A stretch of 64,000 nt of DNA from an uncultured Planctomycetota bacterium (GTDB lineage: Bacteria; Planctomycetota; Planctomycetia; Isosphaerales; Isosphaeraceae), in contig CAWGMQ010000003.1 in the NCBI GenBank assembly GCA_963823665.1, positions 1,376,001 through 1,440,000 on the forward strand. Reading direction: 5' to 3'. The notes beneath the pieces were generated by a model. That model was given only the letters and a program-made list of their open reading frames with translations. It was not told where the DNA came from and made no database searches. Every line of letters begins with the position of its first letter. Within the stretch, counting starts at the first letter, position 1. Shown in pieces: positions 9,785 to 22,305 of the stretch. The translations under genes were made by a program, and so were the position numbers.

Positions 9785-10032
9785 ACACCATCCGTCGTCG
9801 GGCCAGAATAATGGATGCGTGAGTGCATTCTGTGATTAACTCTTCGTCGCGAGTGGAGGGCTGGCCGTCCTGGGTGTGGGCCGGCTGACGTGGTGGGGAG
9901 GGTGATACACGGGTGGCCTCTAGGTCCGATGGCCATTGCGAGTGGCGGGGGTGGTCCGTTACGATCTGTTGCGGCCGGGGAAGGCCGGTCCGCACAGCCA
10001 CGAATCAAGTTTATGCAGGGAACGGCGCTCCG

Positions 10033-11263
10033 ATGCAAGCCTTCGAGGCGACGAACTACTATTTCGAGCAGGCTGCGAACTGTCTCGACCTGTCGGAGAA
10101 CGTTCGCACGCTCATGGTCACGCCCGACCGCGAGGTGCGAGTTGAAGTCGTGATCGAGCTGGATTCGGGGAAGATCGGTAACTTCATCGGCTACCGAGTG
10201 CAGCACGATAATGCGCGCGGCCCGTTCAAAGGGGGGCTGCGGTATCACCCGACGGTTGACGAGGACGAGGCCCGGTCGCTGGCGAGCTTGATGACCTGGA
10301 AGACGGCGCTTGTCGATCTGCCGTTCGGCGGAGCCAAGGGGGGCATCAACTGCGACACCACCAAGCTCTCGCGAGGGGAGCTGGAACGGCTCACCCGCAA
10401 GTTCATCGAGAAGATCCACGACATGATCGGGCCGCACAAGGACATTCCGGCTCCCGATATGGGGACGGACGCGCAGGTGATGGCCTGGATCATGAACGAA
10501 TACTCGAAATACGAAGGATTTCACCCGGCGTGCGTCACCGGCAAGCCGGTGGAATTCCACGGGTCGGCGGGCCGGGAGGCGGCGACGGGATTCGGCGTGG
10601 CGATCGTCACACGCGAGATGCTGGCGCGGCTCAAGCGTACGATCTCGGGCACGACGTTCGCGATCCAGGGTTACGGCAACGTGGGCAGCCACACGGCGCG
10701 ATGCCTGGCCCAGATGGGCGGCAAGATCATCGCGGTTTCCGACGCGTACGGTGCGGTGGTGAACCCGGAGGGGCTGGACATCGCCGAACTGGACAAGCAC
10801 GTCGGCCTCTCGCACAAGATCGTCGGCTTCAAGGGAGGCGACGCAACGAGCAACGAGCAGCTCCTGACCATGCCGGTCGACGTGCTGATCCCCGCGGCGC
10901 TCGGGGGTGTGATCGACGCGCGAGCTGGCCAAGGCCGTCAGCGCGAAGATTGTGGTCGAGGCGGCCAACTCGCCGACATGGCCGGAGGCCGATCACGTGT
11001 TCAACGCCCGCGGCATTCCGGTCGTGCCGGACGTGCTCGCCAACGCCGGCGGCGTGATCGTCAGTTATTTCGAGTGGGTGCAGAACCTCCAGCATTTTCG
11101 CTGGCCGCTTGACCAGATTCAGCGCGAGGAGGAACACAAGCTCGTCGAGGCCTTCCGGGAAGTGTACGACCTGGCGCAGCGCAAAGGCGCGACGCTCCGG
11201 ACGGCCGCCTTCATGAAGGCGATCTCACGCGTGGGCCGGGCGCGGATCCTGGGAGGAATGTGA
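10033..11263 (+). CDS. gdhA: Glu/Leu/Phe/Val dehydrogenase (glutamate dehydrogenase), frameshift near 10915
   Basis: [47 protein letters not shown]-terminus [20 protein letters not shown] lies in the next frame. Confidence 0.92.
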
Positions 11264-15358: not shown

Positions 15359-15678
15359 CACCCGGGGCGCCTCGCGTTGCCGGTCGCTCTCTGATCAGGC
15401 GTATAGAACTTCTCATTTATTTTTGGAAAATCGCCAAAAAGCCAGTAAGGTGGGAGTGAGGGCATACGTATCATAGGGTGAAGTGACACGGCGGGGCTGG
15501 CCGGCACGAAGGATCGCTGGAAAGAGTGATCGGGTGCGAGGGATGGACTGGAATCGCCCTTGCTACGATGGACTCGATTCGGAGATGCCGCAGTGCATGG
15601 CTGATCCGTGCCGGACGAGGATGTCGTGGAGATACGGAGTTCGGAGTCATGGGCAACCCTTTCGCGTGGAGCAAGAAA

Positions 15679-15849
15679 ATGTCGACGCAACCGTCTCAGC
15701 CGACCAAACCAGCAACCAAGCCCGAAAAGCCAACCGACGCCACGGCGCTGCTTTCGCCTGAAGAGCTTCGCGCGATCTCCGGCGGGGCATCGCAGCCTCC
15801 GCCGACGACGGGTGGCGGCGGTAGTGGTGGTGTGCAGCCGAATACTTAA
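15679..15849 (+). CDS. Double-glycine-leader peptide precursor (36-aa leader + 20-aa core ASQPPPTTGGGGSGGVQPNT)
   Basis: GGAG RBS; LSPEELRAISGG matches the LSxxELxxIxGG C39-peptidase leader; directly upstream of an NHLM-type HlyD gene. Confidence 0.8.
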   Translation: MSTQPSQPTKPATKPEKPTDATALLSPEELRAISGGASQPPPTTGGGGSGGVQPNT

Positions 15850-15937
15850 CAGACCATTGAGGTCATTGGCCCATTCGTTGCCCCGAAAGGGTTACGAACT
15901 TGGGCGTCGACGAAATGCGAGAATCGCCGCACGATTC

Positions 15938-15976
15938 GCCCCTGTCGCGTAAACTCGCGCAGGGGCCTTTTCTTTC
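15938..15976 (+). terminator. Rho-independent terminator after the peptide gene
   Basis: gcccctgtcgcg-taaact-cgcgcaggggc followed by cttttctttc. Confidence 0.65.
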
Positions 15977-16003
15977 GCCAAGAGCACTTTCGATCGGAGC
16001 TGC

Positions 16004-17362
16004 GTGATGAGCGACGCGGTGGTTTCGACGCCGAGCCCAGCGCCGAGCGTCCCAAGCCCAGGGTTTGAACGCCTGGATACCCTGGTGCGGGTTACCACCA
16101 TCCAATCTTGGGTGTATCTGGGCCTTTTGTTTGCCGTTGGGACGGCGGCGGTTGCGTTTGCGATTCTGTATCGCGTACCGACCAAGGTGATGGGCGAGGG
16201 GATTCTGCTGATCGAGCAGGACACGATTGCCCAGGTGCGCGCGCAGGCGACTGGCCGGCTGGTGAGCCTGCACGTGAAGCTTGGCGATCGGGTCGAGCCG
16301 GGAAAGGTGATCGGGGAGATTTCTCAAGAAGAGTTGAACGATTCGATACTCGAGGCAGAGGCGAAGCTCGCGGATCTTGTTGAGGAGGACCTCGAGCTCA
16401 CGCGGTTTGAGCGGCTCGAGAGGGTGACGCATGGAAAGGCGATGGACGGAGTGAAGCTTGCGACCGGGCAGGAGCAGAAGAGCTCGCGAGAGAAGTTAAT
16501 GATCGCCGACCACATGGTCAAGGGGACCAACCGGCTTCGAATGCAGTATTCGATGAGCGATCAGGAACTACTTGAGGCACGCGAAAAGAAGTTCAGTATC
16601 GAGAATGACGTGAACAAAGGCGACACCCGATTAGCCGAGTTGGACCTGGAAGGGACCAAGGCAGAGACCGCCCGGCGCGCGCGCGGATCGAACGGAAGCA
16701 CAAGATCAATCAGCTCGAGCGAAAGCTGGAGCTCGACCGCGGGAAGATGGTGCGGATGTCGAAAGTCGTGAGCCGCTTCAGCGGCGTCGTGGCGCAGGTC
16801 TTTTGTGCGCGTGACGAACTGGTGAAAGAGGGGGGGCCGGTCGTTTTGCTGCACTCCCCCAAGTCTGAGCACGGACTTGACGATGCCGGCGTGCCATATG
16901 ACTCAATCGTGTTCGTGCCGGCCGGCGATGGGAAGAAGATCGATACCGGGGACGTGGTGGAAGTGAGCCCGACGACGGTGAAGCGAGAGGAGCACGGTTT
17001 CATTCGCGGCGAGGTGGTGGCCGTCTCGGAGCTGCCCGCGACCAAGCTGGCGATGGAGTCCGCGCTTCAGCATCCGGAGCTGGTCGAGAGCTTCGTGAAA
17101 CGACACGCGCCCGGGGTTTTGCTGCGGGTCCACGTCAAACTCAACCCGGCGAGGGAAACTGACCTCAAGCGTGCGCGAATCGGGCTGCACCGATCCTAAC
17201 CACTACGATTGGTCATCGTCGTCGGGGCTTACTCAACGGCTCAAGACGGGAACCATGTGCCAGGCGGCGATCGTGGTGGAGCGGAGGAGGCTGATCAGCC
17301 TGGTGCTGCCGTGGACGAAGAAGATCATGAGCGGGACGGAGGCGGGGTCGAAGATCGATTGA
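16004..17362 (+). CDS. NHLM/NHLP bacteriocin-system secretion protein (HlyD adaptor), frameshifts near 16680 and 17170
   Basis: ERLDTLVRVTT...W, TM helix, VPTKVMGEGILL, VSPTTVKREEHGFIRGEV..VSELP, YDWSSSSG...GT.C...IVVERRRLISLVLPW; resembles TIGR03794. Confidence 0.85.
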
Positions 17363-18977: not shown

Positions 18978-21900
18978 TCACTCCGGCTGCGAGTCTGTGC
19001 GGGCTCGGTTGATGGCTCGGAGGGCATCGCCGACGGGGGGGAGAGGCTCGACGGATGTTTTGAAGTTGGACGGCGTGCCTCGGACGTGGGCGATGAAGAA
19101 CTGACTGCTGGTGCGGCGGGCGAATTCGCTCACCAGCGGGATGTGCAGGCGATCGCGACCCCACAAGAGGTTGAGCCGGAGGTCCATGTAACCCTGGGGA
19201 TCAAGCGTGCCGCGGCCCATCAAACTGAAGGCATTGCCTGTGAACTTGATGGGATCGAACGTGGTGATGCCGTTGGCGATGCTGAAGTTGACGTCTGCGG
19301 AGTCAAACACCGTTCTTCCCTGGCCGCGGTTCTTGTCGAGCGAGGCGACGCTGATGCTGGGCACCGGGTTGATCACGGAGGCGACCCTCAGGACCGGCGG
19401 CAGCTCGCCCAGGTCGCCCTCGCGGATGTGGGCGTCGCCGCGGCCGTGGATGCTGTGCACGTCGCTGCCCAACCCGTCGAATGCGATCGTCGCGTCGATC
19501 AGGCCGCGGTAGGACTGGCGGCCGGAGATCGTGCGCGCGTATTCCTCGAGCCGCGCTTCCTTGAGCGAGAGCGCGGCATGGTACCGCGGGGTTGCGTCCA
19601 GACTGATCCAGCAGGCGTCGTCGGCGAAAACCTCGCCGCCCAGGTAGTGACCGCGGATGCTGTCGAGGGTTGCGCGGCCTTCTCTGACGTGGAACGGCGA
19701 CTCGAGCTGAGTGAACTGCTGGCCCATGAAGCTGACGCTTTCCAGCTTCATGATTCCCTCAACCGAGAGAGCCATGCCGTTGGACCAGCCGCTGACATTC
19801 TCGAGCTGGCCCTGGATGTGCTCGACGGGGATGGCCGTCCTGATTGCGTTGTCGTTGAAGATCACCTTGGTGTTCTTCCACCGGCACCAGGCAAGATCGG
19901 TTTCGCGACCTGACCAGCCAATTTCCAGATCTCCTCGAGCACGAAACGGCCCGCCGCCATCCAGGCGGAGAGCAAACTGGGCCATCAAGGGGGGCATCTT
20001 GATGCGGAGATCTCTGTCGAACCGGATTTCCTCCAGCCAGGCCTCCTGCACGCTGAGATCGAACTGACCGCTTTTGAGGAGGCGAAACTTTCCGCTCGAG
20101 AACTTGACGGGAGCCCCTCGGAAGCTGAAGTTCACGCGGGTCATCGTGACCTCGCCGTTATCGAAATCGAACTGGCCATGAACGTCGTCCATGGGCAACT
20201 CGATGGTGGCGCCGGGATCGATACCCGGCTGCGGCGAGCGTGTGACCATCAAGTGCACCGTCGACTCGTCACGAGGGATGATCCTGATCTGGGTGCGGTT
20301 CGGGCCGCCGGGGGCGACATGCACCCGGGCCAGGACGTTGCAGGAACCCGAGGGATTGATCGTGGGCCAGACGTTCCGCCACTCGTTGGGAAGGGCGATC
20401 TTGAGCTCCTCGCTGAATGGGAGCTTCTGCGCGTCGAGGGCAATGTCGATCTTGAGCGGCTCTTCGCGTCCAGGCCCCCTGCCCCGCGCCAGCCTTTCCA
20501 CCTTTTCGACGCTGCCGCTGGCCTTGATTTTCGCTTGCCCGTTGCTGCCGGTGACGTCTTTGAATGTCCATTTATCCGGATGAATTTCGAGGCGGCCTTT
20601 CAGGTTGCGAACCGGATAAGGGAGCCGATTCCACGTGATCTCGCAGCCCTCGGTGAGATCGATGTTGGCGTCGAAGGTGATGCGGCCTTGCGGAGGAGCG
20701 TCCGGTCCCTCCATCGGCTCGCGCTGGACCCTGGCATTCACGTTCACCAATCCACTGGCCTTGAACCCATCGACGACCTTGCGTACGTCCGGGGGCATGG
20801 CGTTCTTGATCGCGTCGTCGATCGGGAGAGATTCGCGCCTTCAAGTCGAGCTTGACGACGGCGTCCGGGCCCGGCTTCCAGATCGTTCCGGAAATCTGCA
20901 AGGGGCGGCCGCTCAGCGAATTCAAGTCGACGGAGAGCGTATTCTTCTCGAAGATCAAGTCACCGGTGAGATGGTCGAGCGGATAAGGAAAATGCCGATA
21001 AATCGCCGCGACATCGCGACAACGGACCCTGGCCGTCCAATCGTAGGGCGCACGCGAGTCGTGACGAGTCACGTGGACCGTGAGGTTCACTCTTCCCTGT
21101 GGCTTGAAGAGGTTCCAGAGGTCACCGTACTCAGCCGGCGTTCTCCTGCGCAGGCGGTCGTCGTCGAGCTCCAAGTCGTCGAGCTCGACGCGGAGATCCA
21201 CGGCGCCCTTCTTGTTTCCTTCGAGGACGATCACGCCAGCGGCGCTCAAGGTGGTGTTGCCGTTGGAGCCGTTGGCGTGCTTGATGGTGATGACCTGGTC
21301 TTCGACGCTGACGACGGCCGAGAGGTCGTTGACCGGGAAAGGGAGCAACGGGCAATCCCATACTCCCTCGCGCAGCCGGGCCACCATGTTGCACCGCAGG
21401 CAGCTTTCCGGTGGCGCGGCAGGGTCATACCGGAGCCGGCTCACCTCCAGGTCGAGCACGCCGCCGTTGAGCGCCATCGCCTGCACGCTGCGCCTCAAGC
21501 CGGGCGGGAGCTTGCGGCGGAGGCTTTCCGAGAGGACCAAGCCAGCGAGCTCACCACTGGCCTCGATGATGCCGGTTTTGAGATCGATTGATCCGGTGAG
21601 TGTGAGCCGCTCGAAACCATCTCCGCTGGCCGAGCCTTCGAACTTGAGCTCGCGGTCGGGCCTCGAGCCGGGATCGATTTTGAGGCTGACGTCGCGGAGG
21701 ATTGCCGGGCTGTGCTCGGCGACGGCGCGGGCCACCGCGGACGAGCCCTCAACCGTGGGTGAAGGGAGTGACCCGGCGCCGGGCGGCGAAGGCTCTCCAG
21801 GCGCTGCGCTCGGGTCGTCGCAAGGATAGAGCTCGACGGTGCCGTTGCGAATCTGGATCGGCGGTGTTTCGATCCAGGGTCCGGGCCAGGGATCCGCGAG

Positions 21901-22305
21901 CAACCCCTGGAGGTTCCAGCTTCCATCGTTTCGCGCTTTCAGCCGCAAGGTCGGGTGACCGACGATGATCCTGCCGGATGCGAAGTGTCCCCGGAGGAGC
22001 TCGCGCGGGTTGACTTGAAGCTGAAGGAATGCGATCCGCAGAGTTTCGAACAGTGTGCCGTCGATCGGCTGCTTGAGTTTGAGGTCATGAAGAACCAGCT
22101 CGCCGGTGCGGAATGCGGCCCGAACGCGGCCGGGCTCGAGGATGGTGTTGGGCAGATAGCGGACAGAATGTTCGCGAAGGACTCTCGAAATTGTCTCGCT
22201 GTCGGTGATGTACCAGTAAGCGAACCAGAGGCCGCCGGCCAATGAGGAGAAGCAGAGCACCAGTCCCCAGAAGAGGAATCTCGCGACGCGTCTGCCCAAG
22301 CGCAT
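18978..22305 (-). CDS. AsmA-like (bridge-type lipid transfer) protein, frameshift near 20830
   Basis: N-terminal TM anchor, beta-rich repeats (PFPVNDLS / PYPLDHLTG / PYPVRNLKG), C-terminal GNAFSLMGRGTL..HVRGTPSNF. Confidence 0.75.

Follow-up and report, generated by a model that had tools for sequence, protein, structure and literature searches.

A double-glycine peptide precursor beside a membrane kinase gene in the Isosphaeraceae: a possible exported signal with an NHLM-type exporter

Introduction

What would a peptide gene of 56 codons, with a double glycine at the end of its leader and an NHLM-type adaptor gene just downstream, do in an uncultured member of the Isosphaeraceae, and which exporter would serve it? 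This question is raised by a locus within the window, by which we mean the whole 64,000-nucleotide stretch that was analysed (G000:C3:1376001-1440000), and touches on a wider one, for planctomycetes possess many membrane Ser/Thr kinases with TPR domains, together with kinase-linked ECF sigma factors, the inputs of which are mostly unknown. The initial annotation of the locus had proposed a new RiPP or peptide-export system. The reading that we favour, tentatively and at somewhat short of an even chance, is that of an unmodified exported peptide signal that would be read by the adjoining kinase and would feed an ECF sigma factor.

Results

The precursor gene and its leader

The peptide gene occupies positions 15679-15849 of the forward strand and is nested in frame within a longer ORF (15526-15849); the 56-residue sequence quoted for it in the initial annotation was recovered exactly, and the ribosome-binding site of its own that had been claimed for it is a GGAG (Table 1). 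A protein search with the peptide returned 25 clusters, the window's own included, and since 22 of the 24 non-self homologues begin at the methionine equivalent to 15679, the longer starts at 15526 and 15649 were ruled out. Among three related copies, third codon positions take 60 of the 84 substitutions, as counted over three pairs that are not independent of one another.

The double-glycine leader that had been claimed for this ORF is equally well borne out: the pattern L[ST]xx[ED][LI]xx[IV]xG[GA] occurs once in the six frames of the window, as against a mean of 0.01 in 100 shuffled windows; residues L25, E29, L30, R31, A32, I33, G35, and G36 are invariant in all 26 rows of the alignment; and I, L, and L stand at -4, -7, and -12 before the Gly-Gly (-2/-1) of the window peptide. 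The window peptide gave no NCBIfam match at E<=0.1 and no Pfam match at E<=1, matched none of TIGR03793, TIGR03798, and Nif11 (its leader being of 36 residues), and in an ESM Atlas search had matches under 0.9 only. The check with curated double-glycine-leader HMMs came out divided, in that the window peptide fell below TIGR01847 and its relatives, whereas one of eight related peptides passed TIGR01847 (17.5 against a cut-off of 15.7). Judged by its sequence and conservation, the ORF is a real gene of an uncatalogued family.

As to transcription, a weak hint comes from a soil RNA run (X6), where positions 15576-15785 are covered by contigs from relatives about 89-97% similar; these contigs are uninformative on level and strand and belong to a run that also covers 17 of the 30 bins of a 20-kb stretch; among the pieces listed, all four of the relatives' RNA contigs matched to 2.2 kb fall on the leader region of the peptide gene.

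Table 1. Features of the locus and their positions in the window
Feature	Position	Strand	Basis
Glutamate dehydrogenase gene (gdh), frame-broken	9913-11263 (feature start 10012)	+	Ancestral neighbour of kinase
Membrane Ser/Thr kinase, 1259 aa	11579-15358	+	Pkinase and TPR matches, HRDLKPAN
Predicted ECF-sigma-type promoter	15445-15470	+	GTAA (15445-15448), 18 nt, CGTA (15467-15470)
Short conserved box after the -10 element	15485-15497	+	Alignment of 15 leaders; possible operator
Ribosome-binding site GGAG	15668-15671	+	Sequence; seven bases ahead of ATG
Leader peptide, 36 aa, with double-glycine helix LSPEELRAISGG at its end	15679-15786	+	Invariant residues
Core predicted to be exported (20 aa and a stop codon), rich in Pro/Gly/Thr/Ser	15787-15849	+	Sequence; cleavage inferred
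NHLM-type periplasmic adaptor (TIGR03794), in three frames	16007-17362	+	Profile matches; orthologue intact

The precursor family and its cores

The precursor co-occurs with a C39 transporter: among 121 genomes of the bacterial family, many of them incomplete and the related ones not independent of each other, 32 yielded precursors to a broader profile, and all of these (32/32) hold a C39 domain at E<=1e-20, while the domain occurs alone in 5 genomes and neither is found in 84. The small ORFs beside orthologous HlyD genes, where the initial annotation had advised looking, do include a conserved one with a double-glycine leader, and the search for others in this genome recovered at least seven double-glycine precursors at E<=0.001 for two transporters, most of them with no nearby kinase. 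At G000:C7:710454, C4:1354340, C4:1354761, C6:1573107, and C6:448336 (L152-L155) there are orphan precursors far from any exporter; the core of one begins with LNPQPLPP, as likewise in P0136, P0149, and G001, for which motif we found no description in the literature searched, and another core is His-rich.

In a representative protein library 236 proteins matched at E<=0.001. The core statistics cover the best 150 of those representatives, with 174 proteins fetched in all, and the leader pattern fits 164 of the 174, the search profile having itself contained the motif; the 10 long or non-fitting proteins were excluded, and 25 rows are closely related to the window peptide. The 164 cores have a median length of 20 aa, range from 8 to 30 aa, and are composed of 20% Pro, 16% Gly, and 10% Thr; Cys occurs in 4 of them, Tyr in 20, Ser or Thr in 152, and Lys in 129, and the cores are hypervariable, with no invariant position after the double glycine. 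The core had been described as uncharged, Cys-free, and rich in Pro, Thr, Gly, and Ser, which description suits the window core, but the absence of charge does not extend to the Lys-containing family. Because the leader is conserved and the core is hypervariable and almost devoid of Cys, the reading as an identity signal would fit. The cores of L146, L147, L149 (G085), P0076, P0117, and P0129 presumably resemble short pieces of Hcp, the tube of type VI secretion, and could be decoys or mimics. Among the representative matches, P0026, P0039, and P0157 are polyproteins with repeated cassettes resembling the double-glycine leader.

The low-complexity Pro/Gly/Thr/Ser composition of the cores and the several tandem or dispersed precursors per genome could also mean that the product is a structural or surface peptide—for matrix, adhesion, or aggregation—secreted in bulk, with the kinase and the ECF sigma factor answering another cue; and the available text of PMC4997328 describes proteins with a double-glycine motif that, through a C39 transporter, enable biofilm formation in Synechococcus. 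The placement of the four RNA contigs likewise favours bulk secretion, if weakly; but the cores, at 8-30 aa, are short for polymer-forming peptides and share no repeat, and a matrix peptide alone leaves the kinase-peptide linkage across 12 genera, described below, unexplained, so that we consider this alternative rather unlikely. An unmodified class II-like bacteriocin or proline-rich antimicrobial peptide, to which the leader and exporter type (as in the class II bacteriocins treated in the accessible part of PMC2887384) and the Lys of many cores might point, is very unlikely: the window core has neither charge, nor an aromatic residue, nor an amphipathic stretch, the peptide matches no bacteriocin family, and in a non-exhaustive view of the annotated loci no conserved small immunity-type gene was seen between peptide and adaptor. 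The portion available of PMC5352709 mentions bacteriocins only in passing.

In the wider phylum a TIGR03794 match was found in 22 of 300 sampled genomes, where some adjoin Nif11-like precursors and a few adjoin short double-glycine peptides. Eight other Planctomycetota NHLM adaptors (L199, L207, L210, L216, L205, L197, L203, and L214) have as neighbours either Nif11-like precursors, the cores of which are Val-rich or very short, or short-leader double-glycine peptides rich in Lys and Thr.

Adaptor and transporter

The gene taken for an HlyD with NHLM motifs is indeed of the TIGR03794 type, although its split into three frames had been overlooked. The pieces (16004-16771, 16747-17199, and 17171-17362, with breaks near 16673 and 17172) each match a successive part of TIGR03794 below the cut-off, and the same-genus orthologue is a single ORF of 460 aa scoring 221.7 bits against a cut-off of 156.2. 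Two public DNA runs gave contigs that equal the window except for one more base at 16673 and two more at 17172, each contig having a depth of 2.5 and the one over 16673 only 26 bases on one side. Given those extra-base contigs, the intact orthologue, and the split neighbouring genes gdh and AsmA-like, the adaptor breaks are very likely errors of the long-read assembly, which assembly carries frequent indel errors; a true pseudogene is disfavoured. The AsmA-like gene (18978-22305), frame-split in the window, is one ORF in L031, and the gdh, also frame-split, is one ORF in several relatives.

That no NHLM-type C39 transporter lies inside the window, as had been noted at the outset, was confirmed by a genome-wide search, in which two proteins exceeded the TIGR03796 cut-off, at C3:1458070 and C3:1098900, both outside. 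A conserved double-glycine ORF beside HlyD genes and C39 transporters elsewhere in the genome are thus both present, which are two of the three features on which the proposed export system had been made to hinge; for the third, expression, there is the weak hint from RNA given above. Both transporters are fusions of TIGR03796 and TIGR03797 that keep the Cys, His, and Asp motifs; the one at G000:C3:1458070-1463418 scores 1246.8 bits (TIGR03796) and 1097.8 bits (TIGR03797), above the cut-offs, and the fused protein, of about 1,790 aa, contains a linker of about 340 aa that has no Pfam match. Such a fusion is not described in the literature searched.

The transporter at C3:1458070 has no adaptor beside it, the adaptor of the window being about 65 kb upstream; in other genera transporter and adaptor are adjacent. 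Since it shares its downstream neighbours, Ig-like and CYTH genes, with the unsplit operon of G021 (the Ig-like gene being found in G030 as well), the operon kinase-peptide-adaptor-transporter was split in this genus, and in G001 the split is identical. The transporter at C3:1098900, for its part, follows an intact adaptor and two tandem double-glycine precursors. This second, intact system (L017:10840-19314; G000:C3:1095836-1104313) comprises a divergent ECF sigma gene along with the adaptor and the fused transporter, and its two tandem precursors have longer, acidic leaders; in G001 the precursors number three.

The upstream kinase

The initial annotation, right as to peptide and adaptor, had missed the kinase gene upstream along with the promoter motif and the adaptor breaks. 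The kinase has a C-terminal TPR domain and a single transmembrane helix near residue 537; since basic residues precede that helix, the TPR domain is predicted to be periplasmic and the kinase domain cytoplasmic. Among 56 loci picked by peptide or adaptor matches, a kinase of this type lies directly upstream of the double-glycine peptide in 23, from 22 genomes and 12 genera, and the same arrangement occurs in three of six new metagenome loci (two near-identical). Kinase and peptide are still paired where the adaptor has moved away (L121) or the exporter is inverted (L077), and likewise in two genera whose loci have another neighbour in place of gdh, which is probably not part of the peptide system.

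Of the 121 genomes, 35 have a kinase of this family, and 28 of the 35 also belong to the 32 with the peptide. Of 21 further kinase loci, 15—two paralogues in this genome included—have no double-glycine peptide behind the kinase, one is at a contig end, and 5 belong to the genus g31; in G103 and G104 the kinase stands beside gdh, with peptide and adaptor elsewhere. Because of those 15 loci and the separation in G103 and G104, the adjacency of kinase and peptide may be one of inherited position and shared regulation. A predicted complex between the kinase TPR region and precursor residues 27-56 scored 0.25 against a mark of 0.32, in a prediction run without controls, and so counts neither for nor against binding.

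Relatives without the exporter

Five genomes of genus g31, 94-100% complete, keep the kinase, and in them both the C39 transporter and the NHLM adaptor are absent (loci L173-L177, in G031, G122, G120, G123, and G124, respectively). In all five a Pro/Thr/Gly ORF of 42-68 aa with a ribosome-binding site, yet with no double-glycine helix, lies behind the kinase and is followed by a convergent cytidylate-kinase-like gene; the strict promoter motif is present in three of the five. The small ORFs have little sequence in common and could be remnants in the course of decay. In a quick tree the g31 kinases form one clade, sister to the kinase of G119, a full-system genome, and a single event of exporter loss would seem to have taken place. 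Because these five exporter-less genomes have no helix, and their kinases constitute a single clade, the double-glycine helix appears to be tied to the exporter and to track the transporter; kinase and small ORF, for their part, can persist without export.

The retention of kinase, ribosome-binding site, and small ORF in g31 counts against the signal that we favour, inasmuch as an export-dependent signal needs none of them there, and could mean that the small protein is mainly intracellular, where it would be a disordered substrate or a decoy for the kinase or would regulate it by feedback; C39 export would then be dispensable and would serve to remove or tune the protein. Yet the weight of those five ORFs is lessened by their scant common sequence and possible decay and by their descent from one loss event only, and many peptides have no kinase nearby; we regard a mainly intracellular role as improbable.

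Promoter region and ECF sigma factors

The predicted promoter of the window is placed 208 nt upstream of the start codon, and transcription would begin a few bases beyond 15470. Its motif, GT[ATC]A-N17/18-[CG]GTA, was derived from the same upstream sequences in which it was then counted, and occurs in 32 of 60 peptide-gene upstream regions, with none on the reverse strand and a mean of 1.3 (maximum 5) in shuffles; by type of locus, it is found in 18/23 kinase-adjacent, 3/6 other, 9/14 second-type, and 2/17 orphan loci. Outside that set, five of six metagenome loci (two near-identical) contain the motif, and the sixth is one base off. Locus types vary in their -35 element (TGT[AT]A or GAGTCA). 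A bipartite shape with a CGTA-like -10 element is typical of ECF sigma promoters, and on that shape we predict the motif to be one; a sigma-70 scan found no promoter. Because the motif combined with a ribosome-binding site is rarer genome-wide (153 matches) than its reversed control (382), and thus not enriched, no regulon can be derived from it.

Long 5' leaders of 130-210 nt, comprising that of the window (15471-15678) and those of L017, L069, L126, L137, and L143, share the box that in the window follows the -10 element; in most kinase-adjacent loci the leaders are of about 45-60 nt and the box is absent. The 5' leader had no Rfam match above noise, and the aligned leaders have no shared RNA structure.

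A divergent ECF sigma gene, above the TIGR02937 cut-off, stands beside the peptide in 8 of the 56 loci; none was found beside the window's peptide. L151 unites kinase, ECF sigma factor, peptide, adaptor, and transporter, and L072 holds an ECF-kinase pair inside the operon. Kinase-associated ECF groups, several of them planctomycetal, have been described, and phosphorylation of EcfP has been shown, according to the accessible portions of PMC7826278 and PMC8999054.

Modification of the core

The proposal of a RiPP fared poorly. No YcaO match was found anywhere in the genome, which is 92% complete; the one LanC-like match, a partial one at an unrelated locus on another contig, was rejected as a modifier since it belongs to a separate locus with HopA1-domain and APH-kinase genes; a PqqD match, single and weak, is likewise on another contig; and in the annotated loci there is no conserved linked modifier apart from the kinase. 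The cores being hypervariable and nearly Cys-free, with no invariant residue, and YcaO having no match, a classical RiPP is unlikely. The LanC-like gene, together with the HopA1-domain and APH-kinase genes and an ORF for a 166-aa Pro-rich protein, makes up a locus of its own (L163:7572-11164; G000:C6, about 267,500-271,200), which locus resembles a lanthipeptide-type cluster in split form, with broken frames in the assembly.

A subtler form of the idea is that of a RiPP modified in trans or by a neighbour before export: the kinase, whose catalytic domain is predicted to be cytoplasmic, might phosphorylate the core, for which purpose Ser or Thr would be at hand in 152 of the 164 cores, or unlinked TPR enzymes might glycosylate or sulfate it in the manner of RaxX, a double-glycine precursor with an adaptor, a PCAT, and a sulfotransferase (as given in the part of bioRxiv 10.1101/442517 at our disposal). 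Both transporters do have a TPR-sulfotransferase gene within about 10 kb (L017:3426-5159 and L019:6245-8503); but the genome has 22 sulfotransferase matches, scattered throughout, only 2 of the 56 peptide loci have one, these two being orthologous, and only 20 of the 164 cores contain a Tyr. Being thus scattered and not conserved beside the peptide, the sulfotransferase was rejected as a dedicated modifier. With no invariant core residue, no YcaO, and that lone PqqD match as further points against it, modification in trans is in our estimation unlikely.

Discussion

In the mechanism that we propose for an unmodified signal, the fused ABC transporter with its C39 peptidase, whose gene lies 65 kb downstream, would cut off the 36-aa leader after the double glycine, and the adaptor, the transporter, and a putative outer-membrane channel would export the 20-aa Pro/Gly/Thr core, unmodified, in one step. 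The exported core would constitute a lineage-specific signal, with the TPR domain of the adjoining kinase as its predicted sensor; the kinase would phosphorylate and activate an ECF sigma factor, and this factor in turn would transcribe the peptide operon, with positive feedback as the outcome. For cleavage after the double glycine and for export we argue from the known PCAT families, while synteny is what suggests the signal role, the kinase binding, the phosphorylation of the ECF sigma factor by the kinase, and the positive feedback. Besides the situation in g31, several findings count against the proposal: the excess of precursors over transporters, with the kinase mostly at a distance; and, for the kinase circuit, the 15 further kinase loci that have no double-glycine peptide behind them, the want of an ECF gene by the window's peptide, the varying -35 element, and the motif unenriched genome-wide. 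That the whole would amount to a pheromone circuit of a Gram-negative phylum, assembled from parts other than those of any described circuit—a double-glycine precursor, a fused NHLM-type transporter, a eukaryote-like TPR receptor kinase, and an ECF sigma factor activated by phosphorylation—is a doubtful, though conceivable, proposition.

The exporter is of a known kind; the precursor family, the transporter fusion, and the kinase and promoter context are new to the literature searched, in that no description of them, nor of cell-to-cell messaging of the proposed type, was found in open-licence publications at the level of listings and abstracts. The locus offers a short peptide that can be synthesized, a candidate receptor, a candidate promoter, and relatives that are natural exporter-loss variants, so that the ligand question and peptide signalling in this phylum become directly testable. 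If the proposal were true, the large orphan families of TPR kinases in planctomycetes would have their first self-made ligand, and the more than 150 variable cores would be species dialects; even with no signalling, the locus defines an uncatalogued precursor family and indicates that short peptides, apparently unmodified, can be substrates of NHLM-type exporters.

Among known systems, the streptococcal ComABCDE/CSP circuit combines a double-glycine precursor, a peptidase ABC transporter, an accessory protein, a histidine kinase, and a response regulator. The present system is similar in its double-glycine precursor, transporter, and accessory protein, in the variable core, and in a membrane kinase gene that adjoins the peptide gene; it differs in having a Hanks-type Ser/Thr kinase with a TPR domain and an inferred ECF sigma factor, in a host with an outer membrane, and in that the signalling is predicted. 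No two-component genes were seen among the annotated neighbours. ComC is a verified substrate with a double-glycine leader, as stated in the available portion of bioRxiv 10.1101/442517.

With the NHLP/N11P cassette TIGR03794-TIGR03796-TIGR03797, as far as the accessible part of PMC2887384 describes it, the present system shares all three families above cut-off (the adaptor by way of the intact orthologue and the paralogue), and the 12 residues before its double glycine match motif 2 of that account. The leader, by contrast, is of 36 aa instead of about 70-83 and is neither nitrile-hydratase-like nor Nif11-like; TIGR03796 and TIGR03797 are fused, the cores are nearly Cys-free, no cyclodehydratase or LanM is present, and the conserved neighbour is a membrane kinase.

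The kinase-activated sigma factors EcfP/PknT, EcfK/PknS, ECF59-62, and ECF217 (PMC7826278 and PMC8999054, in the parts available) find a counterpart in L072 and L151, where an ECF sigma factor and a Ser/Thr kinase are co-encoded; those parts describe no self-made peptide ligand, and the ECF sigma factor here keeps the acidic residues of sigma2.2. In RaxX/RaxSTAB of Xanthomonas (bioRxiv 10.1101/442517, in the same portion) there is likewise a short precursor with an extended leader, hydrophobic residues at -4, -7, and -12, and an adjacent adaptor and PCAT, and the product binds a receptor kinase, to which binding the present system would be analogous only as a proposal; RaxX, however, is sulfated on Tyr by a linked enzyme and has a plant receptor as its target, whereas Tyr is absent from the window core, and no modifier is conserved in linkage with it.

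As a PCAT that serves differentiation in a Gram-negative bacterium, HetC provides a further parallel (PMC10986499, in the part accessible). The last comparison is with EbfG1-4/PteB of Synechococcus elongatus, for which no link to a kinase or an ECF sigma factor is reported in the available text of PMC4997328: there, too, several small proteins with a double-glycine motif are exported by a C39 transporter in a Gram-negative bacterium and have a non-antibiotic role.
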